From an uncultured Elusimicrobia bacterium (GTDB lineage: Bacteria > Elusimicrobiota > Endomicrobiia > Endomicrobiales > CAIRNS01), in the NCBI GenBank assembly GCA_903880015.1, contig CAIRNS010000029.1, forward strand, positions 5,378 to 69,377: a stretch of DNA of 64,000 nucleotides. Direction: 5' to 3'. Below, one piece after another: positions 10,183 through 54,016 of the stretch. The translations under genes were made by a program, and so were the position numbers. A model generated the notes under the pieces. The model saw nothing but the letters and a program-made list of their open reading frames with translations, made no database searches and was not told the origin of the DNA. Every line of letters starts with the position of its first letter. Positions within the stretch are counted from its first letter, which is position 1.

Positions 10183-10194
10183 GGAATTTCTCCT

Positions 10195-10223
10195 AAAAAA
10201 ATCCCCTTCCGCTGGGGAAAGGG
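10195..10223 (-). terminator. Intrinsic terminator after tRNA-Val, directly before the thrS RBS
   Basis: CCCUUUCC-CCAGC-GGAAGGGG stem (one G-U pair) followed by A-U7, then AGGAG. Confidence 0.7.
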
Positions 10224-10251
10224 CAAGTACTAACCGTCATCACGACATATA

Positions 10252-10328
10252 TGGTGCCCGATACAGGATTCGAACCTGTGACCCCTTCCATGTCAAGGAA
10301 GTACTCTAACCAACTGAGCTAACCGGGC
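10252..10328 (-). tRNA. tRNA-Val(GAC)
   Basis: Cloverleaf GCCCGGT...; anticodon arm CTTCC-TTGACAT-GGAAG; T-loop GTTCGAATC; encoded CCA. Confidence 0.97.
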
Positions 10329-10357
10329 ATTAAAGAACGAATATATTTGCAAACAAG

Positions 10358-10430
10358 AGGTGCGGGTCGGATTTGAACCGACGAATAGCGGTTTTGCAGA
10401 CCGCTCCCTTAACCACTTGGGTACCGCACC
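10358..10430 (-). tRNA. tRNA-Cys(GCA)
   Basis: GGTGCGG acceptor stem; anticodon arm GCGGT-CTGCAAA-ACCGC; T-loop GTTCAAATC; U73; CCA not encoded. Confidence 0.96.
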
Positions 10431-10695
10431 GATAAGAGTGGTTATTAAACATTATTTGCCAGTAATCTGTCAAGGGAAATATTGTAAACATGAAGGAATT
10501 ATTCATCTTGATATTCCTTATTACTGCCAATAATTAGAGCACATAATGGCAATCAGTTGTACAATGATCTTCAGATATTCTATAGACTTAATTGAGGAAT
10601 CCATAATTGCATGGTGTTTGTAAAATAAATTCCCTGGCATCTGGAAAATCTCCAAATATCAGGGAATGTTTAGTACAACAAAGCTTAATAACTCA

Positions 10696-11061
10696 CTATT
10701 CTAACACTTTTTTTATTTTCAGAAGGATATCGTCCATTTTGAACGGTTTTTTGCAAAAATCTTTGGCTTCCATGTTACCCACCATTCGCGCAGCTTCTTC
10801 TTGGGAATATGAACTTACAAATATGATGGGTATAGTCGAGGTTTGTACTGATAATGAAATATTTTTAAAAGCAGTAATGCCGCCACCGCCCGGCATCTTT
10901 AAATCCAAAATAATGAGATCAGGATGAAAATCATGAGCTTGTTTGACACCTTGATAGGCATCGTGTGCTACTACAACTTCATAACCGTGTGAAATAAGCT
11001 CTATTGTTAGTACTTGTGCCAATGGGATATCATCGTCGACAATAAGGATTTTCTGAGACAC
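10696..11061 (-). CDS. Single-domain response regulator (CheY-like receiver)
   Basis: KILIVDDD, PDLIILDLKMP, FVSS and KKPF; GTG start after GGAGG. Confidence 0.93.
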   Translation of the reverse strand: MSQKILIVDDDIPLAQVLTIELISHGYEVVVAHDAYQGVKQAHDFHPDLIILDLKMPGGGGITAFKNISLSVQTSTIPIIFVSSYSQEEAARMVGNMEAKDFCKKPFKMDDILLKIKKVLE

Positions 11062-11128
11062 ATGTACCTCCATGAAGAACATTGCTCATGGTTTTGACAA
11101 TGCATTTCAAAAAGATAATATTAAAAGT

Positions 11129-11497
11129 TTATTTTTTTAGAACATTATTAATTTTCAGAAGAATATCATCCATTTTGAACGGCTTCGTGAAAAAATCTTT
11201 TGCCCCCATGCCCATCACATTTCGCCTTACTTCTTCAGTATCGTAGGCAGTGATAAAAATAACAGGGATACTTGCGGTATTTGCTGATATTGAAAGATTT
11301 TTGAAAGTAGTTATTCCGCCGCCGCCGGGAAGCATTATATCCAAAATTATAAGATCTGGGGACTCATCATGAGCAAGCTTTATCCCCTGAAAAGCATCAT
11401 GGGCCACAACAACATCATACTCGTGCTCATTTAGCCGTTCTTTCAATAAATTAGCTATGTTAACATCATCATCAATGATAAGAATTTTCTGAGCCAA
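11129..11497 (-). CDS. Single-domain response regulator (CheY-like receiver), paralog of the adjacent gene
   Basis: KILIIDDD, PDLIILDIMLP, FITAY and TKPF; TTG start after GGAGG. Confidence 0.93.
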   Translation of the reverse strand: MAQKILIIDDDVNIANLLKERLNEHEYDVVVAHDAFQGIKLAHDESPDLIILDIMLPGGGGITTFKNLSISANTASIPVIFITAYDTEEVRRNVMGMGAKDFFTKPFKMDDILLKINNVLKK

Positions 11498-11888
11498 GAT
11501 TTGCCTCCATGGATTTAGATGTCAACGAGAAAATTATAGCATTATTAAATCAAGAATGCATACATAATTGTTTTTATAAACTGAATGCTGATTATCCATA
11601 ACAATAGAATTCGCATTAACTCTATATAAACCTTAAGACATATTGAATTTTAGATTATTATCAGAAGCATGACTAAATGAAACTATTAAATAATTGATAA
11701 ATCAATCTGTTTAATAAATATTACAATAACCAAACATGCTTTTATTGATGTAAATATTTGTTCCAACAGCAAAACATCCGGTTAAATCAACCATCAAAAG
11801 TTTTTCAAATATTTTACATCTGCTTTAGACATATTTCTCTCCTTCAGCATACTATGTAGGTGAAGGAAGCAGAAAGGGGATGATTATC

Positions 11889-12098
11889 ATGTCACTGCAA
11901 GAATTCATCAGACTAGAAACAGAGGCATTGAGCATCGTCAATGAGAAGGACAGGACCATGGCATGGAAAGCGGTTGAATGCGGTGCTATGGAGAAAGTGC
12001 GGTTGTATGCTGAGAGCGTGAACTACGAGATTGGCTTAACTGATGTTACGGACATTATTTGGACTGAACTATGCGATTATTTAACCCCAAAACGCTGA
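11889..12098 (+). CDS. Small acidic hypothetical protein
   Basis: Purine-rich SD (GAAAGGGGA) before ATG; higher GC than the AT-rich flanks; followed by a hairpin at ~12101-12131; no recognisable motif. Confidence 0.55.
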   Translation: MSLQEFIRLETEALSIVNEKDRTMAWKAVECGAMEKVRLYAESVNYEIGLTDVTDIIWTELCDYLTPKR

Positions 12099-30411: not shown

Positions 30412-31128
30412 TTAATCGCGAGCTACCGTCACGCAGACGACTGACAATGCACCGGATTTCTTCAGCGCGGCGGCGCAGGCATCCAGTGTTGAGCAGGTTG
30501 TAGCAACATCATCAACTAATAAGATCTTTTTTCGGTGAATGTGCAAGGGATCCTTCACTGCCATAACTCCCTGCATGTTTTTTAATCTTTCCTGGCGACC
30601 AAGAGATGCCTGAACTCGGCCGCGACGCCGTCGCACAAGCGTATTGGTTATCAGCGGCTTATCAAGCGCTGTCGCGAGAATTCTTCCCAGCAATTCCGCC
30701 TGATTATAGCCGCGCAGCCATTGCTTTGACCAATGCAGAGGGACGGGGATGATACTATCAATATCACTGAGTTCTGGATGTTTTTCCACACAATCAATCA
30801 ATAGTTTTCCCAGATACCGCGCGGCATAATCCCGATGAGCGTATTTGAATGCACAAATCAATTTCTTTACCCCCCCTTCATAGCGGGTCGCCGAACGATT
30901 GACCGAGAAATGAAAGCCAACGCCTCTATTACAGAAATAGCAATGCGCCCCCCCGCTTTCAAGAGGTTGTCCACATTTGATGCAAAACAGACCCTCAATA
31001 CGCTTGACGGCGTCATTACAGCGCGAACAAACACGGCATGAGTCATTAATCGGCAGATCGGTGCCGCAGATAACGCAGGTAAGCGGGAAGAAGAAAGCAA
31101 GAATGTGAGAAAAAAGATTATTTAGAAT
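30412..31128 (-). CDS. comF: ComF/GntX family protein (double zinc ribbon + phosphoribosyltransferase)
   Basis: Uninterrupted frame FFP..CVIC...CSRC...CIKC...CYFC into KY, PVPLH..K...RGYNQA and LLVDDVATT. No ATG/GTG/TTG in frame upstream of the zinc ribbons; best start is ATT at 31128. Confidence 0.88.
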   Translation of the reverse strand: MLNNLFSHILAFFFPLTCVICGTDLPINDSCRVCSRCNDAVKRIEGLFCIKCGQPLESGGAHCYFCNRGVGFHFSVNRSATRYEGGVKKLICAFKYAHRDYAARYLGKLLIDCVEKHPELSDIDSIIPVPLHWSKQWLRGYNQAELLGRILATALDKPLITNTLVRRRRGRVQASLGRQERLKNMQGVMAVKDPLHIHRKKILLVDDVATTCSTLDACAAALKKSGALSVVCVTVARD

Positions 31129-34100
31129 TGGATAGTCAACTTTCCGGTGGCTTCCAAAGCAGTATAATTGGTTTTGGGGTTATCGCGATACTCAAAGCGG
31201 TTCCAACCCAGACCGAGCGACATGCGGAAATTCTGGGAGACTTCGTAATCAGCGGTACTGGCAATCGCATAATTAACATTATTATCCCGCTCGATATTCA
31301 AACTCGAATTATGCGTCAGATATTTTAAGGTTGTGGTAAAAATAAAGCGATTCGTCAACGGGAGAGTGCGGCGCGTGAACGGTATCGGAATTCCCCGCGG
31401 GAAGGACATATCCGTGTTGACTTGTCCGGTGTAAGTATTAGTAAACAATTGTGTGGTCAGGGCGCCGAGTCCGTCAACGCGCCATGTCTGCGCGTTTTCA
31501 TATCGGACCATGAACCGCCATTTTCCCGAAGTAAACCCGCTCTGGCTCGACCATGAAATGTCATCGCCCTCTTGCGTCAGCCGATTAAGTACAATATCAA
31601 AATCCCGTGTATGCGCAGTGTTGACAGTGAAATTAAGGTCCAGCTTTCTTACCAGATTGAACCGCCAATCACCGCCATAGGATTTGGTTTCGCTGTGAGC
31701 TATGAGAAGGGTATCCACGGATTTTTGCTGGAGACGAAAATTAATTTGAGAATCGCTCAGCCAGCGGTCGAGATACAACATTTTTTCCGATTGACTGAGC
31801 CCGATAAGCAAATCGGGCCAGACACGCGTATACACATCGCGTTTTGTCCCCGTAATATAGGAATGCTCGTCACTGCCGGAATAAGTAAAATTAGTGGTGA
31901 CCGTTCTCAGTGGTGACAACCTTCCATAGAGACCAAGCGCTTCAAACGGATTATACCGCCCTGAGATACGGATATCATTTTTTTGAACTACTGATTTAAC
32001 GAGATAGTATGTTGTAGTTCCCGGCGTCGGGATCGCCAGGAGCGGATTATCACGGACAATAAGCTTATCCATGGACGGAATTGCGGCTGTCACCGAGCTG
32101 TCGACATTGTCGTAGGAATCGGAATCCTGGATGCGAAACGATGACGAAAACCCCAGTGACTGGGTATACGCATAATTAAATATATCCTTGACCTGAAAAT
32201 TCCATGCCAACTCGCCGGCAGCGTTGCGCTCGATATATTTTCTTTGCGATGGATACACCGGATTGACAGGGTCAGTGCTCATCGTAAGGTTATAGTTTTC
32301 CCGTGTGTTTATCGAATAATTAACGCTGGGCTGCAGCCATTTGAATATGGTCAAAGAACTTGTCGCGCCTACATCCTGAGAAGCAGATTTAGGATATTCC
32401 CGAGCTACGGTGAAATCTTTATTCTTTTCTTTGACCTTGTTGATATTGTAGCTCGGGCTGAATAAAAATCCGTTCCACAACTGAAACGGTGTTTTAAGCG
32501 CAAATGAATCCGTTATTTCCAGCGTATGATAATCAGTTATCTGCAAATACTTCTGTGCAGCTAAAGGATCAAGAAATGCGTCAGTGTCAATAATCTTTGT
32601 CGACGGATAAACGCGGTAATAAGAATTTGTCTGACTGTAGCTGCCCGTAACGCTTGTGGGAAGAAAAAATACGCGCGCCGGCGTCGCATAACTAAAATTC
32701 CCCAGCAATGTTTCCCGATCTTCAAGTCGGCTAATCTGCTGAGAATCGATGATACTGCGTTGGTATGTACCCCCCATTTGGGGAAACCATTTACCCAGAG
32801 ACAAGCTTGAATCTGCAGCGCCGGTATAGGAAGTGACCCGCCCTTCATCAAGCACTGAAAGCAAATCGTTTTGATTTTGAACAACGGAGGGTGTTATCGT
32901 CCGTGAACGCATCATACGGGCAGTAAACGGCACCCAGGTAATTCCGCCGAGATTTAGCCCTTTAAAACCAAGCTGTCCGGAATCTTCAAGTAAATCGCGA
33001 TTATAAACTCCCGCTGCAAATGTCTGGAAATTGCGATTTATCTCTTTGCGGCTCCCGCCCGCAGTAATCGCTCCGACGCGTCCGGCACCCGGCCACAGCA
33101 GGTCCATGCTCGCCCGCCACGCCTCTCCGCTTTTTTTCATTGCATCACTGACATGGATTTCGTTTACCCACACTTCCCCGGTTTTCGGTCCAACCGCCCG
33201 CACTCCAATCTTCAACTGACTGATATTTGCCAGATTCGGTGTCCCGACTAACTTTATTGTTGCACGAGGATCATCGCTCACCCAATGGTCCGCCTTGTTA
33301 GCGCTGCCGACCTGACGAATAGTTATCAACTGCCAGGTATTCACCCACTCCGCGGGAATGGGCATAGAGTACTCATAATAGTTTAGGTCGCTGCCACCCG
33401 CTTGAAGGAAAAAAGTATCACCCTGCGCCTGTTTGCAGTAAACAAAAAATTTCAAATTACCGTAACTTGAAAAATCATAAGGGCGCCCGGAATAAACAAG
33501 GACTGCCCCCAATTGCGTAGTGGTCGTTCCCACGACATTATATTTAAGCGAAAGTGCCTGTTCTTTTGCCTTGGTAGTGGTAGTTTGAGTTTTATATAAC
33601 TGCTGATAATAATAATTGTTGGCAAGGCTCACATAGTCAGAATTATCGGTATTTATGGCAGTTATCGTTAGAGAACTACCGGTTACCGCATTGGCCGTGT
33701 CGGCCAACCAGCGATTGCCGACCATAGACAACCCGGCAATTGAAATGCTCCCTTTTTGCTGCGATGCCCCGCGAATTGTTACGCGCACCTCGCGAATATT
33801 TTTCCAGTCATCGGGAACAGCGATATTGAGCGGAATACGGAAAAATTTCCATCCGCTCCAGTCCACCGATGTATGGGCGACTCCGTTAGCGTCAAGTATC
33901 GATTTTCCATCGGTGTTTGCCGGCCCATAGGGGCAACCGGCAGCCGGCAGCTCAACTGTATCAATCTGTCCATTGGCATTAAAATCCTCGCTGTCGAGCT
34001 TCCCGTTCCCGGCTCCGATTTTGGTTATGGATCCGTCGGGATTGACAAAGTCCCATCCAATATCTTCACCTGAATCCAGTGTCCGGTTATAATTAAGGTC

Positions 34101-36497
34101 TTCCGATTCAAGTCCGGTGTTATTGCTGAATCTCTCGTTAAATGTCCCGTACGACACACTGATTTCTTCACCTTTTCCATCGCCGTTGATCCATGTCTCC
34201 AAATACAGTTTCTTTGAGAAATCCAAACCGCTTGTTGAGAGCGTCTGCACAAGTGAAACCTCATTTGAGTGAAGAAGGTTATAATTGATATTGAGTATTT
34301 GCTGTTTATCATCCGTCTGATATACCAAACTCGGGCTGATCTCGCTTTTTGATACTTCCTGGCTGACCCATGTAAGATCGGTGGCATAGAAAGGCACATT
34401 GGGACCGGTCGGCGCATAGCGCCACTGCTCAGTCAGCATTGAGATACCGTCCTCTTGCTTGATGCCTTCCATTGACTCAACCATGGCTTTGTCCATGATG
34501 TTGGGATTTTGTTCGCTCCGCGCATATTCACCGCTTACAGACATGGTCACGGAACTCAGTGGTATCTTAATATTTGTTGCACGAGAGTCGACCTCGCCAA
34601 CCAGCAAACTTGACGGCGTTGAACGAATGTCCGGAACAGTCTGGCCTTGAGCGGCAAAATCATACACAAAACTCGACCCGACAAAAATATCTTTCGTGAG
34701 AGACAATTCCGAGCGCATACCAACGAGCGTTGAACCGCTTGATCCGCCGAAAGGGGCGTAATCATAGGAAACATCGATAACCGTGTTTTCGTCAATACGG
34801 TCTTCGTTGTACAAGGTCAGTATCCCGGCGTCATAATCAATAAAATAGTCCTCGTTTGCTTTTAATACCCGGGCATTTACGGTAACCCTTTCCGACTGCG
34901 GAACGATACCGGGGCGCAGATTGATTATCTTAATCCGGTAACGGTATTCAGAAACGATGTTGTACCGGTGTGTATTTGAGGAATACAAATCATCCGGTAA
35001 CGGTTTGGCGCTTGCCGGATCAAAATTAAAGATTCCGTTCTCGAAATCAACGACAACATTCGAAGGATATGTGGGAACCGCCTTGTTGCCGGGCATGAGC
35101 GTAGCCGGAACAGCAGCATTAAGATCCTCTATGCGCAGGATAAAATTTCCGCGGCCGTTATCTCTGACTATTTTTATATTGCCGAGACTGTAAAATGTTT
35201 TCAGTTCGGTGGAAACGCCCAACGGGTTTGTAATGCCAAGCGCAGCGTTGGCGGTGGATACATTGTTGCGGTCTTTAATTAACAAAGGGTTACCAGGAAC
35301 GGCACCGCCAGAACTAAGCCATGTACCGTCATTCTTTTGATAATCAATAGCCACCGCCCAATCAGACCCCAGTCGATTGCGGAAAACAATATTGCCGGTG
35401 TGATAATCGACCGTGTAATCCTGACCTGCCACAAGAAGGTCGAAGTTTCCCGCATAAGAAAATCCCGGGTTGGGCAACAGTGACGACAATGAAGTGGCGG
35501 TGGAAATAACTATTTTCGAATTATTATCATTGCGGATATCATCCTGATAAATTTTAACGGTTCCCGCCTTTATAGCATCAACCCCGGCGTTCGTCGCGTA
35601 GTATTTAAGCGAAATGAAAGAAGTATCGGCTATCGTCACGCGGTTAAACTGCGTATTGCCGGTAAAGCGCTTTACTTCGGACAATCCTTTGGTCCGTGAG
35701 AAAAAACCCTGCGTATGCAAGGACTTGTAGCGGGTATCGAGTTTTACGCCGAACAACTGGCGGGAATAGCCGACGAATTCTGTCGAAGGAAGCGACATGA
35801 CGATATCGCCGAACGCCGCCTCCTGAACAAATTCGTTCGGATCGCCTTTGTAAACAACGGATATGTCGCGCTTGTCTGCGACGGTATCGTCAAAATCGAC
35901 ATTAACATTTATCTTTCGCCCCACCCGCCCTTTAATGCGCACCTGGAGTTCCTGCTTCATATCGAAACTGCTGGAGTTAACCCGTGTGCCGATCTCAGGC
36001 TGGTCGTAAATCGTGGATTTCATGGTCACGCCGATTAGTTTTCTGCCTGAAATGAACAACTGCGATTCATACGGCAGTTCGACAGAAAGACCCGGTGGAA
36101 GCGGCAGAGGAGCGGGGCGGGTAATCGTACTGACCGCCACAGTCGGCTCCTGAGAAACACCGGATTCCTGCGTATGGCGCATTTGTTGCCAACGGTCTTT
36201 TGAGTAGTAAACATTCTTATTGGTATCAAGAAATTCCAGAAATTCGGTTCCGGCAACCCCCTGCGGAGTAGTGGTTGGTAAAGATATTTCATATGCCGTA
36301 GCTACCGCAGTAGGTGTGGAAACGAAGGGAGTTACAGAATCAGCGGGAGAAGAAATAAGGGTAGCGAAAAAACTTTCTTTGTCAGAACCTAAAATTGAAT
36401 ATTTACTATCAGAAAGGCGGGAAAAAGGTTCCGCATACGCTGCTCGGGGGGCAAACGAAATGACCATATAAATGAAAATATACAATGCTTTTCGCAT
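31122..36497 (-). CDS. SprA/Sov-like giant outer-membrane beta-barrel (T9SS translocon homolog)
   Basis: Signal peptide; FDMKQELQV.IKGRVG..INVNVDFDD, YKGD..EFVQEAAFGD+..SLP...F.GYS.QLFGVK, SERVTVN...L....DY.IDY..G.L, SEDLN.N..LD and GEVWVNEI motifs as in SprA; alternating beta-strand C-terminus ending in Phe. Confidence 0.8.
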   Translation of the reverse strand: MRKALYIFIYMVISFAPRAAYAEPFSRLSDSKYSILGSDKESFFATLISSPADSVTPFVSTPTAVATAYEISLPTTTPQGVAGTEFLEFLDTNKNVYYSKDRWQQMRHTQESGVSQEPTVAVSTITRPAPLPLPPGLSVELPYESQLFISGRKLIGVTMKSTIYDQPEIGTRVNSSSFDMKQELQVRIKGRVGRKINVNVDFDDTVADKRDISVVYKGDPNEFVQEAAFGDIVMSLPSTEFVGYSRQLFGVKLDTRYKSLHTQGFFSRTKGLSEVKRFTGNTQFNRVTIADTSFISLKYYATNAGVDAIKAGTVKIYQDDIRNDNNSKIVISTATSLSSLLPNPGFSYAGNFDLLVAGQDYTVDYHTGNIVFRNRLGSDWAVAIDYQKNDGTWLSSGGAVPGNPLLIKDRNNVSTANAALGITNPLGVSTELKTFYSLGNIKIVRDNGRGNFILRIEDLNAAVPATLMPGNKAVPTYPSNVVVDFENGIFNFDPASAKPLPDDLYSSNTHRYNIVSEYRYRIKIINLRPGIVPQSERVTVNARVLKANEDYFIDYDAGILTLYNEDRIDENTVIDVSYDYAPFGGSSGSTLVGMRSELSLTKDIFVGSSFVYDFAAQGQTVPDIRSTPSSLLVGEVDSRATNIKIPLSSVTMSVSGEYARSEQNPNIMDKAMVESMEGIKQEDGISMLTEQWRYAPTGPNVPFYATDLTWVSQEVSKSEISPSLVYQTDDKQQILNINYNLLHSNEVSLVQTLSTSGLDFSKKLYLETWINGDGKGEEISVSYGTFNERFSNNTGLESEDLNYNRTLDSGEDIGWDFVNPDGSITKIGAGNGKLDSEDFNANGQIDTVELPAAGCPYGPANTDGKSILDANGVAHTSVDWSGWKFFRIPLNIAVPDDWKNIREVRVTIRGASQQKGSISIAGLSMVGNRWLADTANAVTGSSLTITAINTDNSDYVSLANNYYYQQLYKTQTTTTKAKEQALSLKYNVVGTTTTQLGAVLVYSGRPYDFSSYGNLKFFVYCKQAQGDTFFLQAGGSDLNYYEYSMPIPAEWVNTWQLITIRQVGSANKADHWVSDDPRATIKLVGTPNLANISQLKIGVRAVGPKTGEVWVNEIHVSDAMKKSGEAWRASMDLLWPGAGRVGAITAGGSRKEINRNFQTFAAGVYNRDLLEDSGQLGFKGLNLGGITWVPFTARMMRSRTITPSVVQNQNDLLSVLDEGRVTSYTGAADSSLSLGKWFPQMGGTYQRSIIDSQQISRLEDRETLLGNFSYATPARVFFLPTSVTGSYSQTNSYYRVYPSTKIIDTDAFLDPLAAQKYLQITDYHTLEITDSFALKTPFQLWNGFLFSPSYNINKVKEKNKDFTVAREYPKSASQDVGATSSLTIFKWLQPSVNYSINTRENYNLTMSTDPVNPVYPSQRKYIERNAAGELAWNFQVKDIFNYAYTQSLGFSSSFRIQDSDSYDNVDSSVTAAIPSMDKLIVRDNPLLAIPTPGTTTYYLVKSVVQKNDIRISGRYNPFEALGLYGRLSPLRTVTTNFTYSGSDEHSYITGTKRDVYTRVWPDLLIGLSQSEKMLYLDRWLSDSQINFRLQQKSVDTLLIAHSETKSYGGDWRFNLVRKLDLNFTVNTAHTRDFDIVLNRLTQEGDDISWSSQSGFTSGKWRFMVRYENAQTWRVDGLGALTTQLFTNTYTGQVNTDMSFPRGIPIPFTRRTLPLTNRFIFTTTLKYLTHNSSLNIERDNNVNYAIASTADYEVSQNFRMSLGLGWNRFEYRDNPKTNYTALEATGKLTIQF

Positions 36498-36557
36498 GTC
36501 ATTAAATTATAACTCATTTTATATCATTTTGCTACATTTTTTTATATAATACCAACC

Positions 36558-37649
36558 ATGAAGATCGTTCACCGCTATGTTATCAGGGAATTCATCGAAG
36601 CATCCTTTTTTGGGCTAGTGGTTTTTTCCACAATTTTACTGCTCGACCAGGTATTTCAGCTTATTAATCTGATACTCTCAAAACACGTTTCTGTTTTTCT
36701 TGTTGCCAAACTGTTTCTCTTGGTTCTTCCCAACATCTTTTCGCTGACGGTCCCCATGGCAACCCTTTTTGGCATTTTGCTAGCTTTCGGCCGCCTTTCC
36801 GAAGATAACGAGATAACAGCCCTGCGCGGAACGGGATCCGCCTACGGCTCCTTTACTTTCCCGATACTTATCTGTGCGGCTGCACTCAGTTTTTCGCTGA
36901 TATATTTTAATCAATTTTTGTCCCCAAACACCCACAAAAGCTTCCGGAAGATGTACACCGAGATATTAACCAATACGCCGTTGATTAGATTTGAAGAAAA
37001 AACAATTACCACAATCGGCGAGTATCATCTGTATGTAAAACGCTCCGATACTGATGCGGGCGTTCTGCGCGGTATCAATATTTATAAGTTTTCAAACGAG
37101 GAAGTTGGCGTTCCGTGGCGCATCGCCGCTTCTTCAGGGACGGTCGCCGTAACGCCGCAAGCGGTGATATTAACTTTGCACAACGGCTATTGGCAAAAAC
37201 CAAACCCTGCCAGACCGGGCAATTTGATTCACATGACATTTCGCACCTATATTTTCCCCATCCCCATAAACGACAAAGCACTACCGGCAAGCCAGTCGCT
37301 GAGAGAAATGAACTTTAACGAACTTCGTCAGGAAATAGCGACCTACCGGACACGAAAAATGCCTACCAATTTCCTTGAAAATGAGTTCTGGTTGCGATTC
37401 GTTTTGGCACTTGCCCCATTGATGTTCGCAATCATCGCTATCCCCTTGGGGATTATCACTGAAAAAGGCGCAAAATCGATCGGATTCGGCATGAGTTTAT
37501 TAATATTGTTTGGATTTTATATATTGCTGGTCACCGCTATGAACATTGGCGAGAACGGCTACATACGACCCGGGATTATTTTGTGGCTTCCCCATATAGT
37601 CCTTCTGGCTGCCGGCAGTTTTCTCTGGAAAAAAATGTTGAGGAAATAA
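36558..37649 (+). CDS. lptF: LPS export permease LptF family
   Basis: RYVIREF, PMATLFGILLAFGRLSEDNEITALRGTG, periplasmic domain and C-terminal TMs. Confidence 0.9.
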   Translation: MKIVHRYVIREFIEASFFGLVVFSTILLLDQVFQLINLILSKHVSVFLVAKLFLLVLPNIFSLTVPMATLFGILLAFGRLSEDNEITALRGTGSAYGSFTFPILICAAALSFSLIYFNQFLSPNTHKSFRKMYTEILTNTPLIRFEEKTITTIGEYHLYVKRSDTDAGVLRGINIYKFSNEEVGVPWRIAASSGTVAVTPQAVILTLHNGYWQKPNPARPGNLIHMTFRTYIFPIPINDKALPASQSLREMNFNELRQEIATYRTRKMPTNFLENEFWLRFVLALAPLMFAIIAIPLGIITEKGAKSIGFGMSLLILFGFYILLVTAMNIGENGYIRPGIILWLPHIVLLAAGSFLWKKMLRK

Positions 37650-37652
37650 ATT

Positions 37653-38729
37653 ATGCTTTTGTACCGATATCTATCCCGCGAATTTATTAAACCGTTGATT
37701 TTTAGCACCGCCAGTTTTGGCGGATTAGTTATGATTTCCGAGTTTTTTCGGGAGTTAAATTATTATCTCGAGAAAAAAGTTAATTTCATCGATGTTTTCG
37801 CCTATCTTTTGTGCAATCTTCCCTGGTGGTGCATTCAAGTATTGCCGGTCTCCGTCCTGTTGGCAGTGTTGTTTTCGCTGGGCGATCTTGCGCGCCATAA
37901 CGAGATAACCGCGGTTAAGGCATCCGGAGTTAATCTGTGGAAGATCATACTGCTCTTTATGCTGGGCGGATTGCTGATCGGCGTCAGTGATTTTGCCGTA
38001 CGGGAACTGGTTATCCCCCACACAGTGCGCCTTGCGGAAGTTATCCGTGACACCCGCATTCACCGCGAAGACGCATCCGACCATTATCAATATTACAATC
38101 ATGTCGTCACTTTGCCGGGCAACGGCAGAATGACAATCGGATATCTCAACCTCAAAACAAAGACAATGACCGCGGTCGTCATTGACTATTTCGACGACAA
38201 CGACGAGCTTCGGCGGCAAGTTGTCGCTGCGTCAGCTGATTGGGTTAACGACGATTGGAGTTTTCGCCAGGGCGTCGAACGCATTTTCACGCCAGCCGGC
38301 AGCGAAGATCATCCGTTTTCGCAGCAGAACAATATCATGAAGGTCCCCCCGGATGCCTTTGTTGTTAAACATTTGCGCCCCGAACTGATGAATACGCGGG
38401 CTTTTTTCCGGTATATAAAAACCTTTGAGCTGATTGGCGCTCCCGTGCAAAACGAAAAGATACAACTACACCAGCGGTTTGCGGCAGTTTTCAGCCACAT
38501 GATCGTGATGTGCATCGGCATACCCTTCGCGCTGGGGTTGGGAAGCCGGCACGGGAAATTGATTAGTTTTACGTTTGCGCTTATTTTTGCGTTTATCTAT
38601 TGGGGATTGCAGGCAGTCGGACAATCACTAGGCGAGAATAAAATTATTTCCCCGCTTATGGCAGCGTGGCTTGCTAATATTATTTTTGCGTGGATTGGTT
38701 TGTGGATGATTGCAAAGGTAGACAAATAA
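37653..38729 (+). CDS. lptG: LPS export permease LptG family
   Basis: RYLSREF, LPVSVLLAVLFSLG.LARHNEITAVKASG and P.MAAWLANIIF. Confidence 0.9.
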   Translation: MLLYRYLSREFIKPLIFSTASFGGLVMISEFFRELNYYLEKKVNFIDVFAYLLCNLPWWCIQVLPVSVLLAVLFSLGDLARHNEITAVKASGVNLWKIILLFMLGGLLIGVSDFAVRELVIPHTVRLAEVIRDTRIHREDASDHYQYYNHVVTLPGNGRMTIGYLNLKTKTMTAVVIDYFDDNDELRRQVVAASADWVNDDWSFRQGVERIFTPAGSEDHPFSQQNNIMKVPPDAFVVKHLRPELMNTRAFFRYIKTFELIGAPVQNEKIQLHQRFAAVFSHMIVMCIGIPFALGLGSRHGKLISFTFALIFAFIYWGLQAVGQSLGENKIISPLMAAWLANIIFAWIGLWMIAKVDK

Positions 38730-38746
38730 TTCATATACATCTGGAT

Positions 38747-40414
38747 TTATCGGATGATGGCGAGTTTTCCGGTTTTGGTTATGGTGTCCGCTTTTACACG
38801 GTAGAGATAAATACCGGGTGCAACATCTTCGTTGGACTCATTCTTGCCGTTCCAATCACATTCATACACCCACTTATTGTTAACTGATTTATCCAAGCGC
38901 AACAAAAATGTATCTTTGTTAAATGATGCCACTTTCTCGCCGGCAATAGTATAAATGTCCAAAAAAATACTTTCTGGCGGACGGGTTGCCTGGAAGACCA
39001 CCGTCGTTATCACACCGCTGGCGGAACGCGGATGAGGGTGTCCTGCCCCCGAGGGGTTAGGATAATTGGTTAATTTGTCTATGCTTGCCTCCGGCAATAC
39101 CACAATTTTCTTAAAACTGGCGTCCGCGCGTCCTGACTGAAGAATAATATCAGCGATTGCTATGTCGGTAACACCACCACTAAAAGTATTTGACCGAGGC
39201 GAAACAAAGGATGAACCAGCGACAAAAGCGTCACTGGGGTGCCCGGGTGCTTTAAAGGAACCGGCAGCAGGGACAAGAGCAACGCCGCGGTGCGGCACCC
39301 CGCTGTTGACATCATTGTTCGATAACCGCGTCGCATTAAGCGCAATAGCGTCATCAATATGCCATATGACGATACCGGAGCCAGGAGCAGTTAAATCATA
39401 TTTCATGCGCGTGGAATCCGGATTACGGTATTCGGCAATAAAATACTCTGTGGAAACAGCACTGTCAATCGGTATCTTGTAATAACCGGTTGTCTGTGCG
39501 GTTTCAATGTCGCCAAATTCAATTTTCTTGCTGTCTGAGAGCAAGCGGGTAGGCAAATCGACATATTTAAGAAAGTTTTTAGACCATACATCCAAATGAG
39601 GAGGGTTACCCGAATTATCTGTACCGTAAGGATAATCCATTAAACTCCATGCGCCCATAGTGCTGGTGCCCCCAGCATTGGTGGTATCATAGAGGTCAGG
39701 AAGCGCCAGTTGATGGCCAAACTCATGACAGATAACCCCCAACTGCGTATAGCTGGGGGCAGATACAGCAGCCGGGACTACCGTAAACCCGTCAAATGTC
39801 TTCGGGCCGGTACCGGCGGAATTAAGCGCCTGCGGGTCATACATTGACCACAAATCAGCTGAATCCCCCGATTCTTCTTCTCCCGCCCCGGCATGGTAAA
39901 TCATCAGATAATCATAATCGGAATATCCCGCACCCGGAGGCGAGGGCATACCAGCCGTAGCGTCTGTAAACAGCCGCGTTAAATCAGCATCTGTTTCATT
40001 GTTGTAGGAACCAACGTTTTTCGGAAGAGTCACGCTGGTGGTCACCGTCGCCGTAACGGTGAACAGCGTATATGAATTCTCATAGTAGTAATTGCGCATG
40101 GATGAAAAAAATGTCGCTGCATCCGTCAAGTAAGAAGCCGGTAAACTAGGTCCACTCCCGGGAAATTGCACGGGTATAACCAATATCTTTTTTGTTGTAG
40201 CTGTCAGTAATGCTTTTTCACCCGCCATCCGTATCGCGCCTTTCATCTGAAGAGATAGGCGCATCTTCTCCCCCATAGAACGACACGATTTGAATGCAAC
40301 TGGCTTTTGATGGGTAGCCCCTCCCCGATTGATAGGCGGCGCAGCAAAAAGAAAATCATGCCCCATAATAATCGTCGCAAAAAGAAGCAATAAACCAACC
40401 AATATTCTATTCAT
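38747..40414 (-). CDS. M6 family zinc metalloprotease with C-terminal T9SS type A/FlgD-Ig sorting-like domain
   Basis: Signal peptide; YY.ENSY, HAGAGEE, HEFGH..ALPDLYD, WSLM..G and GIVIWHID; C-terminus NYPNP...IYTIAGEKV...WNGKN....VAPGIYLYRV......GKLAIIR. Confidence 0.9.
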   Translation of the reverse strand: MNRILVGLLLLFATIIMGHDFLFAAPPINRGGATHQKPVAFKSCRSMGEKMRLSLQMKGAIRMAGEKALLTATTKKILVIPVQFPGSGPSLPASYLTDAATFFSSMRNYYYENSYTLFTVTATVTTSVTLPKNVGSYNNETDADLTRLFTDATAGMPSPPGAGYSDYDYLMIYHAGAGEEESGDSADLWSMYDPQALNSAGTGPKTFDGFTVVPAAVSAPSYTQLGVICHEFGHQLALPDLYDTTNAGGTSTMGAWSLMDYPYGTDNSGNPPHLDVWSKNFLKYVDLPTRLLSDSKKIEFGDIETAQTTGYYKIPIDSAVSTEYFIAEYRNPDSTRMKYDLTAPGSGIVIWHIDDAIALNATRLSNNDVNSGVPHRGVALVPAAGSFKAPGHPSDAFVAGSSFVSPRSNTFSGGVTDIAIADIILQSGRADASFKKIVVLPEASIDKLTNYPNPSGAGHPHPRSASGVITTVVFQATRPPESIFLDIYTIAGEKVASFNKDTFLLRLDKSVNNKWVYECDWNGKNESNEDVAPGIYLYRVKADTITKTGKLAIIR

Positions 40415-40438
40415 AATTATTTAATAATCTTTAACTTA

Positions 40439-40527
40439 AAATCCGCCCCAGCCCTCCTTTGCAAAAGGAGGGAGTTTGCGGCAATATCCTTACCCCCCCC
40501 TTTGCAAAGGGAGATTCAGGGGGATTT
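40439..40527. repeat. Inverted doublet of AAATCC..CCCTTTGCAAAGGG palindromic repeat, family C
   Basis: AAATCCGCCCCAGCCCTCCTTTGCAAAAGGAGGG faces the reverse complement AAATCCCCCTGAATCTCCCTTTGCAAAGGGGGG. Confidence 0.7.
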
Positions 40528-40545
40528 GATGTGTTCTGTTTGCTT

Positions 40546-40588
40546 AAAAAAATGAAGACGCGAAACGACTTGGTCGTTTCGCGTCTTC
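40546..40588 (-). terminator. Intrinsic terminator of the lipoprotein/barrel operon
   Basis: 16-bp perfect stem GAAGACGCGAAACGAC/GTCGTTTCGCGTCTTC followed by a U-run on the minus strand. Confidence 0.8.
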
Positions 40589-40610
40589 GTATTAAGTATG
40601 CGAAAACAAC

Positions 40611-42194
40611 CTATTTCTTCTTTGCTGACGGTACCGATAACTTATCCGGCAGCGCTGCGGCCGGTTTTGCGACAGGCGGAGCAGGCGTTATTGCAGGAAC
40701 TACCGCTGGGGTTGTTGCCGTCGCCGGCGATTGAACGGGAACCACAGCTGCCGGAGCAACAGGAACAACAGGCGTCACAGGGGATACAACCGGCATCACC
40801 GGGGTGACCGTTGTCGAGGTGACGGGGTTAGTCACACTCGTCGGCGGGACAAGTATTTGCCCCGTTGTCGGAGCAATCAAATCAACCGCAGGTGCCGGAG
40901 ATATATTTTTAACAGGAACTGGTTTTGTCGCCTTCTTTACAACTACATCCTCTTCGGACTTTACATCATTGCCGTATGCCCGGCCTTTAGCGTCGCCCCA
41001 GCTCAGAGCGAGCGTTATCTGGTGATTCCATTCAGGCAACTGTCCGGCAAATCTGCCGGTTTCATCAGCCCAGTAGGCATAATCTGCACGCAACCCAAGG
41101 TAAGGAACGCGCAATCCGCCACCGAATGTCGGATAACCGGAATTAAAGCCGCCCCGGACGGAGATTGGGCCAAAGCGCATTTCGGCGCCCATATGCACTT
41201 TCTTCCAGCCGGTATCATCAAAAAGGCGCTCATCGGTATTTAAAATATCGCGAATATCACCGACAAAAACAATGCGGTCGTGAGTATTAATCGCTTTGCC
41301 CGGCCAATATGCGATTTTTGACGGGATATACGCTACACCGGTGTTCCACTGTGAGTTTATCATCCCGGTATAAGCTGCTTTATCCAGTTGACCTGCTTTT
41401 GAAGCGGTTACTTTGTCGTATTTTATAGTCGTACCACCCACATCCGTGATCTGCAATCCAAGATTCCAGCGCGTGGTCGGCTGATACATTGCGCCCAAAT
41501 CCATACCATATCCATCACCGCTTTGAAGCTGAGGATTAAAGTTCTGGAATTCAAGAACTGATTTATTGAGTTCTTCAATTTTGTTGCGGGAAATAGCTTT
41601 AAGTGTCGTACCGATGGACGCCTTCCCAGGTAAGTAAGGGACACTATTAAACTGGTGCGCCAGAGGAATAGCCGCAACCGCATCAATATTGCCGAATACA
41701 CTTATGCTGGGAATTATCAAACTGCGGTTAAACTGAAAACCGATTTCTGCCTGAGCGAATATTCCGGCGCCCCAGGTAATGTTCTTGTTGCCCGTCAAAT
41801 AACTCGTATTGGGCAAACCGACTCTGACGCGGGGGCGATAGGTCGTTATACGATCATTGATAACATTGAGAAGATCAATCTTTTTCTGATTCGTCAACTT
41901 ATCAAAGTTTTCAAGATCAGTTTTATTATCCTGATAAAAATTGTAAAAATTCAGGACATCTTCGCTGATGTTAATCGGTATTTCAAATGCAACAAACTGA
42001 CTTCCCTGTCGCTGGGTCAACCCCGCGGGATTGTAGAAAATTGCATTCTGATCGTCGCTGAGCGCGACAAACGCACCACCCATGCCGAGCGGACGGACAC
42101 CACGAAAGAACACCGGCGTCTCGGCAGCAATTACGGTCGCGCTTAACAGGGTAGCTGTGATTGAAAGACAAATAAAGCGTTTAATTGTTTGCAT
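40611..42194 (-). CDS. PorV/FadL/TraF-like outer-membrane beta-barrel with Pro/Val/Thr/Ala-rich C-terminal tail
   Basis: Signal peptide; GVRPLGMGGAFVALSDDQNAIFYNPAGL hatch motif; GYGMDLGAMY, HMGAE, RGGFNSGY.TFG.G and DYAY strands; low-complexity tail of ~120 aa. Confidence 0.8.
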   Translation of the reverse strand: MQTIKRFICLSITATLLSATVIAAETPVFFRGVRPLGMGGAFVALSDDQNAIFYNPAGLTQRQGSQFVAFEIPINISEDVLNFYNFYQDNKTDLENFDKLTNQKKIDLLNVINDRITTYRPRVRVGLPNTSYLTGNKNITWGAGIFAQAEIGFQFNRSLIIPSISVFGNIDAVAAIPLAHQFNSVPYLPGKASIGTTLKAISRNKIEELNKSVLEFQNFNPQLQSGDGYGMDLGAMYQPTTRWNLGLQITDVGGTTIKYDKVTASKAGQLDKAAYTGMINSQWNTGVAYIPSKIAYWPGKAINTHDRIVFVGDIRDILNTDERLFDDTGWKKVHMGAEMRFGPISVRGGFNSGYPTFGGGLRVPYLGLRADYAYWADETGRFAGQLPEWNHQITLALSWGDAKGRAYGNDVKSEEDVVVKKATKPVPVKNISPAPAVDLIAPTTGQILVPPTSVTNPVTSTTVTPVMPVVSPVTPVVPVAPAAVVPVQSPATATTPAVVPAITPAPPVAKPAAALPDKLSVPSAKKK

Positions 42195-42209
42195 GTCGTT
42201 CTCTCCCCT

Positions 42210-43043
42210 TTATAGATAGTCAGTGTTGATATCCGCAAGCGTAACTCCCGCAAGGGACGACTGTGATTTCAAGTTGGTCAGCAATGCATCGACATCTTTC
42301 TTGATGTCAGCGACAGAAGAATCATTGCCCAGATTAAGTTTTTCATATACAGTTTTCAAGCGTTGAAACGCACTGGCAATATCTTTAGAAGCATCAACCA
42401 TGACCTGTTGCTCAGCGGCCGTAAGACCCGACTTGATGTTCACAAAAGTATAATCGGAATTTACGGTGAAAATACCCGCATCCTGAACATTAGTCGCGGC
42501 ACGCAGTATAAGACAGAATGCCGTGTTAATATTGGCATCAGCACTGTCAGGGGCTATAACACCGTCCGCTGTCCCCTTTATAATTTTTGGCAAAAGGTCG
42601 CTCTGCAAGACCCTGGCAACCGCCGCTCTAATTTTGGGCAGGTTATCAATAATCGATTGAGGCAGAATGTTAGTCGCAGGCGCACTGGCTTTCGCAATGG
42701 TGCTTAATGCCGGCGTGAGATGATTGACTGATGGCGCACTTGTTTGTTTAACCAGATTGGCGACTAACGCGGAAATATCCAAACCAGACTCCGCAAGAGT
42801 AGAAGAGGAATACCCATAAATCGCCTCGGTGCTTGAAGGGTCAGCGTCAAGAATTTTTTTATAATACTCAAGAGCTTTTACATAATCTTTTGCTTGAAAA
42901 GCCGCATATGCATCTGCAGCCAACGATTTTACATCCGAACTGGACCCTGCTTTATGCGCAGACCCAAAGAGATTGTTCTTACCACAACCGGTTAATCCTG
43001 CAAACAATAAACACATCAACAATACTGACACTATTCTGGACAT
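42210..43043 (-). CDS. Helical lipoprotein with N-terminal TPR-like repeat
   Basis: Lipobox LTGC; AYAAFQAKDYVKALEYYKKILDADPSSTEAIYG is TPR-like; strong SD AGGAGGAGG. Confidence 0.8.
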   Translation of the reverse strand: MSRIVSVLLMCLLFAGLTGCGKNNLFGSAHKAGSSSDVKSLAADAYAAFQAKDYVKALEYYKKILDADPSSTEAIYGYSSSTLAESGLDISALVANLVKQTSAPSVNHLTPALSTIAKASAPATNILPQSIIDNLPKIRAAVARVLQSDLLPKIIKGTADGVIAPDSADANINTAFCLILRAATNVQDAGIFTVNSDYTFVNIKSGLTAAEQQVMVDASKDIASAFQRLKTVYEKLNLGNDSSVADIKKDVDALLTNLKSQSSLAGVTLADINTDYL

Positions 43044-52806: not shown

Positions 52807-54016
52807 TTACTCACTCTTCGCGCGATCAATGGCTGTGGCTGCTTTCTCGTTTGCAGGGTTCATCCGCAGAGCGATTTCCCACAAGCGCACTGCGTCAGCT
52901 GTTTTCCCTTGCGCATACAGCACAAGCCCTGCGCGATATTTCTCGGCAGAACCTTCCTCATCAATATCGTGATGTATTGTTGATTCATTTTGTTTAGGCA
53001 AAACCTTTTGCTTTCTCTTACCTGATGATTTGTTAATTGACCCTGAAAGCGTTTTTACGGCCTTGTCGATACACTCGCCGGCTTTTAAATATAGCTCGAT
53101 TGCCCATGTGCCGGGATTGCCTTTACACAAAGATTGTACTTGTTCCATCGTTTTGATACAAGTCACCCAACTGCCGGCGGCGTACGCATCACTGCCGCGC
53201 GCGAATAATTGCCGTGCATTTTCCTCATGTTCTTTTTCCTGCTTGCGTTTATTCTCGTCAATAAGCAGAACTTTTGTTTTAGCCAGATAGCTTTTTACTT
53301 CTTCCTGCTCCGGATTAAACATCAATACTTTTTCCCATTCCTGCACGGCCGCGCCATAGTGCTTGCCTTGATAACTGACAAAAGCAATCGCATAAGAGAC
53401 CCATTCCAGATTGTCTTCATTAACGCCGCGGGATTTCTCATCCATCATCACAAGTATATCATCATAGTACTGGTCTGCCATCTCAAATTCAGGATATTCG
53501 AGTTTAAGACGGCGGAACTGTTCTATAGCGGTTAAATAGCATTTTTGATGGTATGAATTCCTTGCTTCATTAAAGAGATCCTTGGCTTTACTATCCCGTT
53601 GTTTGCGGAATTGCTTATCTTCGCTGAGCGCAACTTTTGCTTCGGCCATCAGCACGGCATTTTTCTTGACCTTCCCTTTTGAGCGGCTGAAATAAAACGA
53701 CATCCCCACCTTTGAAACCATCGCAAAACGACTGTAATCGATAGCGTAATCAATCCGGAACAACGGATGTTTATATCCAAACCCAGCGGTCACATGCTCG
53801 TCAAAACTACCGGCGCGCAGTATATATTTATTCATAAATGCATACTCTACGCCAACAGCGTACAGCGCTTGCTGTTCTTCTGCCCGCGAATCAAGATACA
53901 ACGATACAATATCGGAAGAAACCAGCCGGTACACAACCGGCATATCAAAAGCCACGCCGGCATGATAGCTGACGGGGTATGTTTCTTTATTTGAATTGAC
54001 AGGAAGAACTATGAAT
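52807..54016 (-). pseudogene. 5'-truncated PorV/UPF0164-like barrel + TPR protein (C-terminal remnant)
   Basis: Frame opens after a stop with no signal peptide: KETYPVSYHAGVAF..., AVGVEY..., LRAG....VTAGFG....RIDYA.......KVGMSFYF (last barrel strands) followed by several TPRs. The N-terminal barrel strands are missing. Confidence 0.65.

Follow-up and report, generated by a model that had tools for sequence, protein, structure and literature searches.

A gene at 31122-36497 (minus strand) of a 64,000-nucleotide stretch of DNA (the window; positions 5,378 to 69,377 of contig CAIRNS010000029.1, assembly GCA_903880015.1) from an uncultured bacterium of the phylum Elusimicrobiota encodes a 1791-residue protein, here called the pore, which is a true but shortened homologue of SprA/Sov, the translocon of type IX secretion systems (T9SS). 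The available text of PMC7463736, PMC12421860 and PMC7192894 restricts the T9SS either to Bacteroidota or to the FCB superphylum. We consider it probable, though well short of certain, that the pore is the Elusimicrobiota SprA/Sov translocon and that it belongs to a T9SS variant that has no motor and uses dedicated cargo carriers. An earlier note on this DNA had suspected a host outside Bacteroidota, which is borne out: the host belongs neither to Bacteroidota nor to the FCB group, the stretch being part of an Endomicrobiales metagenome-assembled genome (MAG) of 1.81 Mb in 31 contigs, 99.92% complete. That note had read four open reading frames (ORFs) between 31122 and 43043 as a T9SS-like locus, composed of an SprA-like translocon, a PorV-like barrel, a protease with a C-terminal sorting domain (CTD) and a tetratricopeptide repeat (TPR) lipoprotein. 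The coordinates and the described sequence features of all four agree with the ORF list and the translations; by the same ORF list the span holds six genes.

The pore begins with a signal-peptide-like N-terminus (MRKALYIFIYMVISFAPRAAYA) and ends in ...KLTIQF, a beta-signal with a terminal aromatic residue. The SprA/Sov model TIGR04189 matches it with 161.3 bits (E 2e-47) over three collinear stretches, and the genome-wide search with this model returned three pieces of the pore, none above cutoff. A profile was needed to reach the known structures, since a single-sequence phmmer search of the pore against the PDB gave no match. The profile built from 16 members of the pore family (profile A1) matched Flavobacterium johnsoniae SprA (6h3i/6h3j) at E 4.9e-27 in four collinear stretches, with residues 174-298, 547-623, 857-1074 and 1099-1209 aligned to SprA residues 155-281, 701-777, 1158-1404 and 1467-1575, respectively, so that the four blocks span SprA residues 155 to 1575. 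An AlphaFold 2 (AF2) model restricted by size to residues 600-1791 (the C-terminal 1192; 49-row alignment) has a mean predicted local distance difference test score (pLDDT) of 87.3. When this model was compared with the PDB by Foldseek, the top four matches were SprA chains (E 3.5e-40 to 8.7e-31, TMq 0.56-0.59), followed by the Deinococcus SlpA barrel at E 6.6e-8; LptD structures appear as weak matches at E ~1e-4. The modelled residues 600-1791 thus have the giant-barrel fold of SprA. Profile models, the PDB profile search and the predicted fold agree, and the identification of the large ORF as an SprA homologue stands.

Relative to F. johnsoniae SprA, which has 2403 aa, the pore lacks ~600 residues. 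The offset between profile A1 and SprA numbering climbs steadily, being -19 at first, +368 at residue 1209 and ~+590 at the end, which points to a loss distributed over the chain and not to a single deleted domain. The length of about 1800 residues, which the earlier note had already contrasted with that of Bacteroidota SprA, is a conserved trait of the family across the phylum.

The distribution of the pore was counted among Elusimicrobiota genomes only, the protein libraries mentioned below being without taxonomy. Profile A1 finds the pore in 216/251 sampled genomes of the phylum and in 187/196 of the high-quality ones, usually once per genome and in open frames of about 1650-1950 aa; a single genus, g3 (pore in 19/41), whose genomes measure 0.4-1.4 Mb, accounts for most of the misses. 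The C-terminal 1192 residues, searched against 1.84 billion cluster representatives, recovered only 270 proteins at E<=0.001. The best 120 matches in a collection of 5.8 billion proteins are all ~1740-1915 aa long, and every named protein among them is a 'hypothetical protein' of Elusimicrobia or Endomicrobia. Related loci were collected from one genome per species scanned; of these 21 loci (best identity 70%), 20 come from Elusimicrobia, Endomicrobiales or Endomicrobiaceae MAGs and one from an unclassified bacterium. Among the matches listed the frames are intact, without internal stops, and many residues are invariant across the phylum at 30-70% identity. Constant length together with invariant residues argues for long purifying selection, and fragmentary pore matches are confined to a few reduced genomes (G022, G147 and G225). 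The pore family is real, conserved and unannotated.

The other two hallmarks that the earlier note had inferred from the window, PorV-family barrels and CTD-type cargo, are both present in the genome. The PorV_fam model (NF033709) gave 14 matches in 12 genes, four of them above cutoff, and phylum-wide it matches in 223/251 genomes, with several copies in most. TIGR04183 gave six matches at E<=0.01, five above cutoff, in the same genome; CTD matches above cutoff (TIGR04183 or PF18962) occur in 57/81 phylum genomes and number up to 55 per genome. A custom hidden Markov model (HMM) of the CTD was seeded with seven tails of this genome, the tail of the window protease among them, and iterated three times over 1516 frames, each 100 aa or longer, from a crude ORF call. 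It recovered ten proteins at E<=5e-9 and one marginal match. One of the ten is a PorV barrel to which a CTD is fused; among the nine others, eight are encoded directly beside a PorV-family gene, the window protease included. The cargo, which is hydrolase- or adhesin-like, includes the M6 protease of the window, an NHL propeller protein (1109 aa), a GH72/GH2-like protein and proteins with FlgD_ig or CHU_C tails.

The PorV-family barrels of this genome are varied in architecture. Three of them, none being the window barrel described below, are fused to TPR domains. Individual cases with periplasmic or sorting modules are two proteins of 714 and 715 aa with TPR arrays (C28:97599-99743 and C22:63159-65306), a 660-aa barrel with an OmpA peptidoglycan-binding domain (C28:106425-108407; E 2.4e-23) and a 431-aa barrel with a CTD-like domain and a Lys-rich tail (C2:59856-61151). 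In the window itself, a 382-aa ORF with TPR repeats (52807-53955, minus strand) matches the C-terminal part of PorV_fam weakly (22.6 bits); it could represent a PorV-TPR fusion that is truncated or has a misassigned start.

The putative cargo in the window is a secreted M6 (InhA-type) zinc metalloprotease of 555 aa, encoded at 38747-40414 on the minus strand. Its M6 domain scores 133.6 bits with TIGR03296 against a cutoff of 110.8 (PF05547, E 5e-17), and the HEFGH motif at residue 230 is intact, so the enzyme is probably active. Its C-terminal sorting domain (residues 450-555; 38750-39067, minus strand), which resembles a T9SS type A CTD, runs from NYPNP at residues 450-454 to the final ...KTGKLAIIR; the tail reads ...WNGKNESNEDVAPGIYLYRVKADTITKTGKLAIIR and the C-terminal end ...VAPGIYLYRVKADTITKTGKLAIIR. 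This tail matches PorU over model positions 979-1079, the segment for the CTD, and, weakly, FlgD_ig; it is not among the TIGR04183 matches of the genome at E<=0.01. The custom CTD HMM matches it at E 3.7e-24, though the tail was one of the seeds of that model. An M6 ortholog in a related locus (L014) matches PF18962 (Por_Secre_tail) with 25.9 bits against a cutoff of 27.

The gene for a 527-aa barrel protein (40611-42194, minus strand) lies 196 bp upstream of the M6 gene. The AF2 model (pLDDT 83) predicts a FadL-type barrel, corresponding to residues 1 to ~400 (40995-42194, minus strand), a beta-barrel of the FadL/PorV superfamily that we regard as a putative dedicated carrier or anchor of the M6 protease. 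The segment GMGGAFVALSDDQNAIFYNPAGL at residues 37-59 contains the NPA hatch motif, which the earlier note had taken as a mark of PorV; the motif is common to the FadL/PorV superfamily and does not serve that purpose, and a FadL 'delta NPA' mutant is among the PDB matches of the barrel. Relatives of the window barrel carry PF13729 (TraF_2) or PF18990 (DUF5723), and some are named 'conjugal transfer protein TraF'. The remainder of the protein (~residues 401-527; 40614-40994, minus strand) is a tail rich in Pro, Val, Thr and Ala that ends in KKK and is predicted to be disordered (pLDDT <50 from residue 441). Tails of similar composition and variable sequence are found only in close orthologs, while distant homologs stop at the barrel beta-signal; the tail is presumably periplasmic. 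Co-folding of barrel residues 24-405 with residues 445-555 of the M6 protease gave a score of 0.00, which speaks neither for nor against binding. A pairing of the M6 protease with a non-orthologous 297-aa barrel is found in four Endomicrobiaceae-type loci (L014, L015, L017 and L018), 8-9 kb from the pore.

The TPR lipoprotein (277 aa; 42210-43043, minus strand) has the lipobox LFAGLTGC and one TPR (TPR_19, 25.8 bits). Its gene ends 15 bp upstream of the barrel gene, and the two probably form one operon. The protein was first compared to SprE, which does not hold: no SprE/PorW model of NCBIfam or Pfam matches it, the only matches being generic TPR and weak BamD/PgaA ones, and it is not an SprE ortholog. 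We read it as a partner of the barrel because of the three other barrels that are fused to TPR domains; its similarity to the TPR domain of a PorV-TPR fusion is of the generic one-repeat kind (E 3e-4).

The earlier note saw no motor genes in the window, and none were detected there, genome-wide or phylum-wide with the four NCBIfam models, which were run without a positive control. The parts sought genome-wide were the GldL/GldM motor, which is driven by proton motive force, the GldK/GldN hub, the sortase PorU and PorP/SprF. At E<=0.01 neither the genome nor the window has a match to GldK (TIGR03525), GldL (TIGR03513), GldM (TIGR03517) or GldN (TIGR03523). Among 201 phylum genomes at least 90% complete, GldM and GldN are each found in 0/201 (E<=0.001) and GldL in 1/201, by a weak match of 24.7 bits against a cutoff of 68.3. 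GldK above cutoff is likewise found in 0/201; matches below cutoff occur in 50/201, the best with 96 of the required 350 bits. Many of the GldK-model matches are multi-copy and cover nothing but the FGE-sulfatase section, a pattern consistent with generic FGE-sulfatase domains and not with true GldK. As for the other parts, PorP/SprF (TIGR03519, a model also without a positive control) has no match in the genome, and all six matches to PorU (NF033707) there cover only the CTD part of the model (positions 979-1093), the best with 31 bits against a cutoff of 420. The only gene of the MotA/ExbB/TolQ family in the genome lies inside a Tol-like operon.

We propose the following route. Proteins delivered by Sec and carrying a T9SS-like CTD would be exported through the 1791-aa pore, and the CTD of each would serve to pass it on to a barrel of the PorV/FadL type, the genes of the two being neighbours in most cases. 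The barrel would carry the cargo off the pore or, as seems probable, anchor it at the cell surface. For the window, this makes the M6 metalloprotease the putative cargo and the 527-aa barrel, made together with the TPR lipoprotein, its dedicated partner. PMC7463736, PMC12421860 and PMC10994853 present the T9SS as unable to work without a proton-driven motor and its hub; in transport, it has lately been argued, the motor serves solely to pull the carrier-cargo complex off the SprA pore. According to the available text of PMC10994853, PorV loops of F. johnsoniae enter SprA by its lateral opening and are bound by the CTD of the cargo; removal of the motor traps cargo on the pore, and the release of the carrier-cargo complex is held to need energy. 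The available text of PMC12635249 proposes an energy chain via a GldK/PorK track that moves and has outer-membrane proteins attached to it by disulfides. With no detectable motor, hub, PorU or PorP, extraction of the carrier-cargo complex from the pore would have to be spontaneous or driven in some other way. The passage of CTD proteins through the pore, the binding of cargo by the neighbouring barrel and the absence of any motor are what we infer from the genes as they stand.

Several findings weigh against this reading. The score of the pore with TIGR04189 is below the curated equivalog cutoff of 200 bits, and the Pfam scan of the pore found no match to SprA_N. With PorV_fam, whose cutoff is 90 bits, the window barrel scores only 55 (E 9.5e-15), and its best Foldseek matches are TodX, TbuX and FadL (E 4e-8 to 1e-6), with PorV (6h3i_F) at rank 16 (E 5e-6). 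It is nearer to TodX/FadL and therefore a member of the FadL/PorV superfamily, but not a core PorV. The Gld models and TIGR03519 were used without a positive control, the 14 control genomes containing no T9SS organism. The phyletic pattern, on the other hand, counts in favour of the reading: when the pore and PorV_fam were cross-tabulated over the 251 genomes (counted by hand), both were present in 212, neither in 24, PorV_fam alone in 11 and the pore alone in four; 8 of the 11 PorV-only genomes are <91% complete, and three of the four pore-only genomes have only fragmentary pore matches. In genus g3 the agreement is complete, all 15 PorV-positive genomes having the pore and all 22 pore-negative genomes lacking PorV. 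This co-loss took place within one clade whose genomes are shrinking and cannot be counted as several independent losses, so it supports a functional link between pore and PorV only weakly. Family f20 runs against the reading: 68/70 of its genomes keep the pore and have 1-3 PorV genes each, yet TIGR04183 matches occur in only 6/27 genomes, and in 0/15 of its genus g51. Either the CTDs of this family are too diverged for the model or the pore has another core role.

The gene neighbourhood is the last of these points. The conserved neighbours of the pore gene are not secretion genes; they are lptG-lptF (16/21 loci) and comF (17/21), and this adjacency is kept even at 32% identity. In the window, lptF (36558-37649, plus strand; PF03739, E 1.8e-74) and lptG (37653-38729, plus strand; PF03739, E 4e-70) stand in the middle of the span, divergent from the pore gene, and a comF-like gene (30412-30861, minus strand) directly follows it. 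The TPR and barrel genes adjoin the pore in only 4/21 loci (L012, L013, L016 and L025), and an M6 gene lies between barrel and lptG in 3/21. A conserved secretion operon around the pore was looked for by clustering the neighbours in the 21 loci and is rejected, the clusters being lptFG, comF and housekeeping genes only; the other clustered neighbours are amylases, RmuC, a solute-binding protein and 6-phosphogluconolactonase. Of the compact 12-kb locus described earlier, what remains is that the genes are present together; they are not a conserved operon, and lptF and lptG had gone unlisted. The locus is a lineage-specific juxtaposition of a TPR-barrel-M6 group with the pore.

One alternative is a complete T9SS in which the motor and hub either escape the NCBIfam models through divergence or have given way to non-homologous analogues, the pore being energised much as in Bacteroidota. 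The pore itself stays under its curated cutoff and finds no SprA in the PDB as a single sequence, and with a pore this diverged the smaller partner proteins would be more easily missed, all the more by Gld models that lack a positive control; the weak GldL-like match of one genome and the FGE-sulfatase-fold proteins in 50/201 genomes (the fold that GldK has repurposed) could be read in the same sense. This would leave unexplained why GldM and GldN are each absent from all 201 genomes at E<=0.001 and why none of the 21 loci encodes a motor candidate close to the pore. The GldK-like matches, moreover, are multi-copy, patchy and absent from the genome under study, none exceeding 96 of 350 bits, and the single MotA/ExbB/TolQ-family gene sits in a Tol-like operon. 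We therefore hold a hidden motor of the Bacteroidota type to be unlikely.

Another alternative gives the SprA-like barrel a different primary job, in envelope biogenesis linked to lipopolysaccharide (LPS) or as a large general channel, and lets the barrel-cargo pairs work without it. The persistence of the divergent lptFG adjacency down to 32% protein identity, the single-copy and nearly universal pore gene, its retention in f20 where recognisable tails are rare, and the presence of LptD among the weak structural matches all fit such a role. Its most specific form, the pore as a replacement for LptD, was considered because of the lptFG adjacency, the lack of a PF04453 match and the lack of an LptD among eight large outer-membrane candidates. 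It is rejected: the genome has an LptD candidate of its own (C8:20313-22415, minus strand; 700 aa; LptD_N 21.7 bits, PDB LptD matches at E ~1e-5), divergent, without a PF04453 match and without a terminal aromatic residue, and LptF/G is kept in 17 of the 22 pore-negative g3 genomes, the five that have neither the pore nor LptF/G being of 0.2-0.7 Mb and at most 78% complete. The Lpt system accordingly does not need the pore. Against the wider form stand the presence of a BamA in addition to the LptD candidate, the lack of PorV_fam in all 22 pore-less g3 genomes and the specificity of the match of the pore to SprA, which is ~30 orders of magnitude better than that to any other barrel. The neighbour comF is conserved as well as lptFG, so a conserved gene order does not by itself imply a common function in this phylum. 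A primary role outside secretion thus seems to us improbable.

That the pore is a decaying remnant of a T9SS, acquired horizontally from an FCB bacterium and no longer secreting after loss of its motor, would suit the missing motor, hub, sortase and PorP and the ~600 residues that the pore lacks against SprA, but is very hard to reconcile with a pore that is intact at about 1650-1950 aa throughout, shows long purifying selection in its invariant residues and is fragmented in only three reduced genomes, and with multi-copy PorV genes and up to 55 CTD matches per genome.

The motor-less variant with dedicated carriers shares several features with known systems. With SprA (6H3I, 6H3J, 8GL6 and 8GL8) and Sov the pore has in common the four collinear blocks, the giant single-chain barrel, the signal peptide, the terminal aromatic beta-signal and the co-occurrence with PorV-family barrels and CTD-tagged proteins; it differs in its length (1791 vs 2403 aa), its score (161 vs 200 bits), its Elusimicrobiota host and the lack of detected GldKLMN, PorU and PorP. 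Of the parts that characterise a canonical T9SS, the genome thus has an SprA/Sov homologue, PorV-family carriers and CTD cargo; GldL/GldM, GldK/GldN, PorU and PorP/SprF were not found in it. PorU-PorV and PorZ-PorQ are cognate cargo-shuttle pairs of the Bacteroidota T9SS.

A parallel for the gene arrangement is offered by type B cargo, the genes for which sit beside those of cognate PorP/SprF-like shuttles in the available text of PMC12618676. Here, too, the cargo gene is directly beside an outer-membrane barrel gene (8/9 cases), whereas the barrels are of the PorV/FadL superfamily and not PorP/SprF, the tails are like type A, FlgD_ig or CHU_C domains, and several of the barrels have extra periplasmic modules, which are OmpA, TPR, a disordered tail or, once, a CTD. 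The window barrel shares its fold and the NPA hatch segment with the 14-strand channels FadL, TodX and TbuX and with TraF_2/DUF5723 proteins; it differs from FadL channels in lying beside a CTD protease and a TPR lipoprotein, in its 130-residue disordered tail and in having no pointers to hydrocarbon or fatty-acid uptake. The protease resembles the M6 (immune inhibitor A) family and the inactivated T9SS M6 proteins of NF052323 in having an M6 domain above cutoff together with a C-terminal sorting domain. Its intact HEFGH sets it apart from NF052323, with which it scores 59 bits against a cutoff of 600.

The earlier note knew of no functional description of such a system, and we found none in the literature. 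SprA-type secretion in Elusimicrobiota is not treated in the available text of PMC12204202 or PMC7031533, and no description of it was found elsewhere in a search that did not extend to the supplementary tables of surveys. The result extends the range of SprA-type secretion beyond Bacteroidota and the FCB group, and it offers a function for hundreds of 'hypothetical' proteins of ~1800 aa and for barrels annotated as 'TraF'. A whole phylum that keeps pore, carriers and cargo tags under selection, with the motor undetected, lets the motor model be tested in nature: extraction either can proceed without energy input or is powered by an energiser of a kind not yet recognised. The pairing of one cargo gene with one carrier gene suggests a general design. 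On a more tentative level, which we rate as less probable than the existence of the variant itself, export may work without GldLM and GldKN because each cargo has its own barrel that both extracts and anchors it, with release by folding of the cargo, by the affinity of barrel and cargo or by TolQR, the only stator of the cell that uses the proton motive force, and such a system may be ancestral to the motorised T9SS and to gliding.

Cultured strains of Elusimicrobium and Endomicrobium exist, so the question is open to experiment. The f20 genera g42 and g51 (genomes of 1.3-1.8 Mb), which keep the SprA-like gene and almost never have TIGR04183 tails, may have a minimal version of the system or cargo tags that go unrecognised.

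Some further features of the genome were recorded. The Tol-like operon (C17:18826-25713) encodes TolB (429 aa), a 909-aa TPR protein, a 487-aa protein, TolQ and TolR, and neither TolA nor Pal was identified in its annotated stretch; the 487-aa protein has a signal peptide, ends in ...LTVQF, matches no Pfam family and appears barrel-like. In a 940-aa protein of unusual architecture (C9:16705-19527, minus strand), Peptidase_MA_2 is combined with PD40/DPPIV propeller repeats and, at the C-terminal end, an Omp85-type barrel. Small as the genome is, further routes of surface export are suggested by a candidate trimeric autotransporter with a YadA anchor, 1090 aa long (C2:131143-134415, minus strand), and by a CsgG/FlgO-like lipoprotein of 423 aa (C22:50714-51985, minus strand). 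The comF gene directly follows the SprA-like gene in 17/21 loci. The GC content of the window, ~0.46-0.48 over most of its length, dips to 0.376 at 10001-12000.

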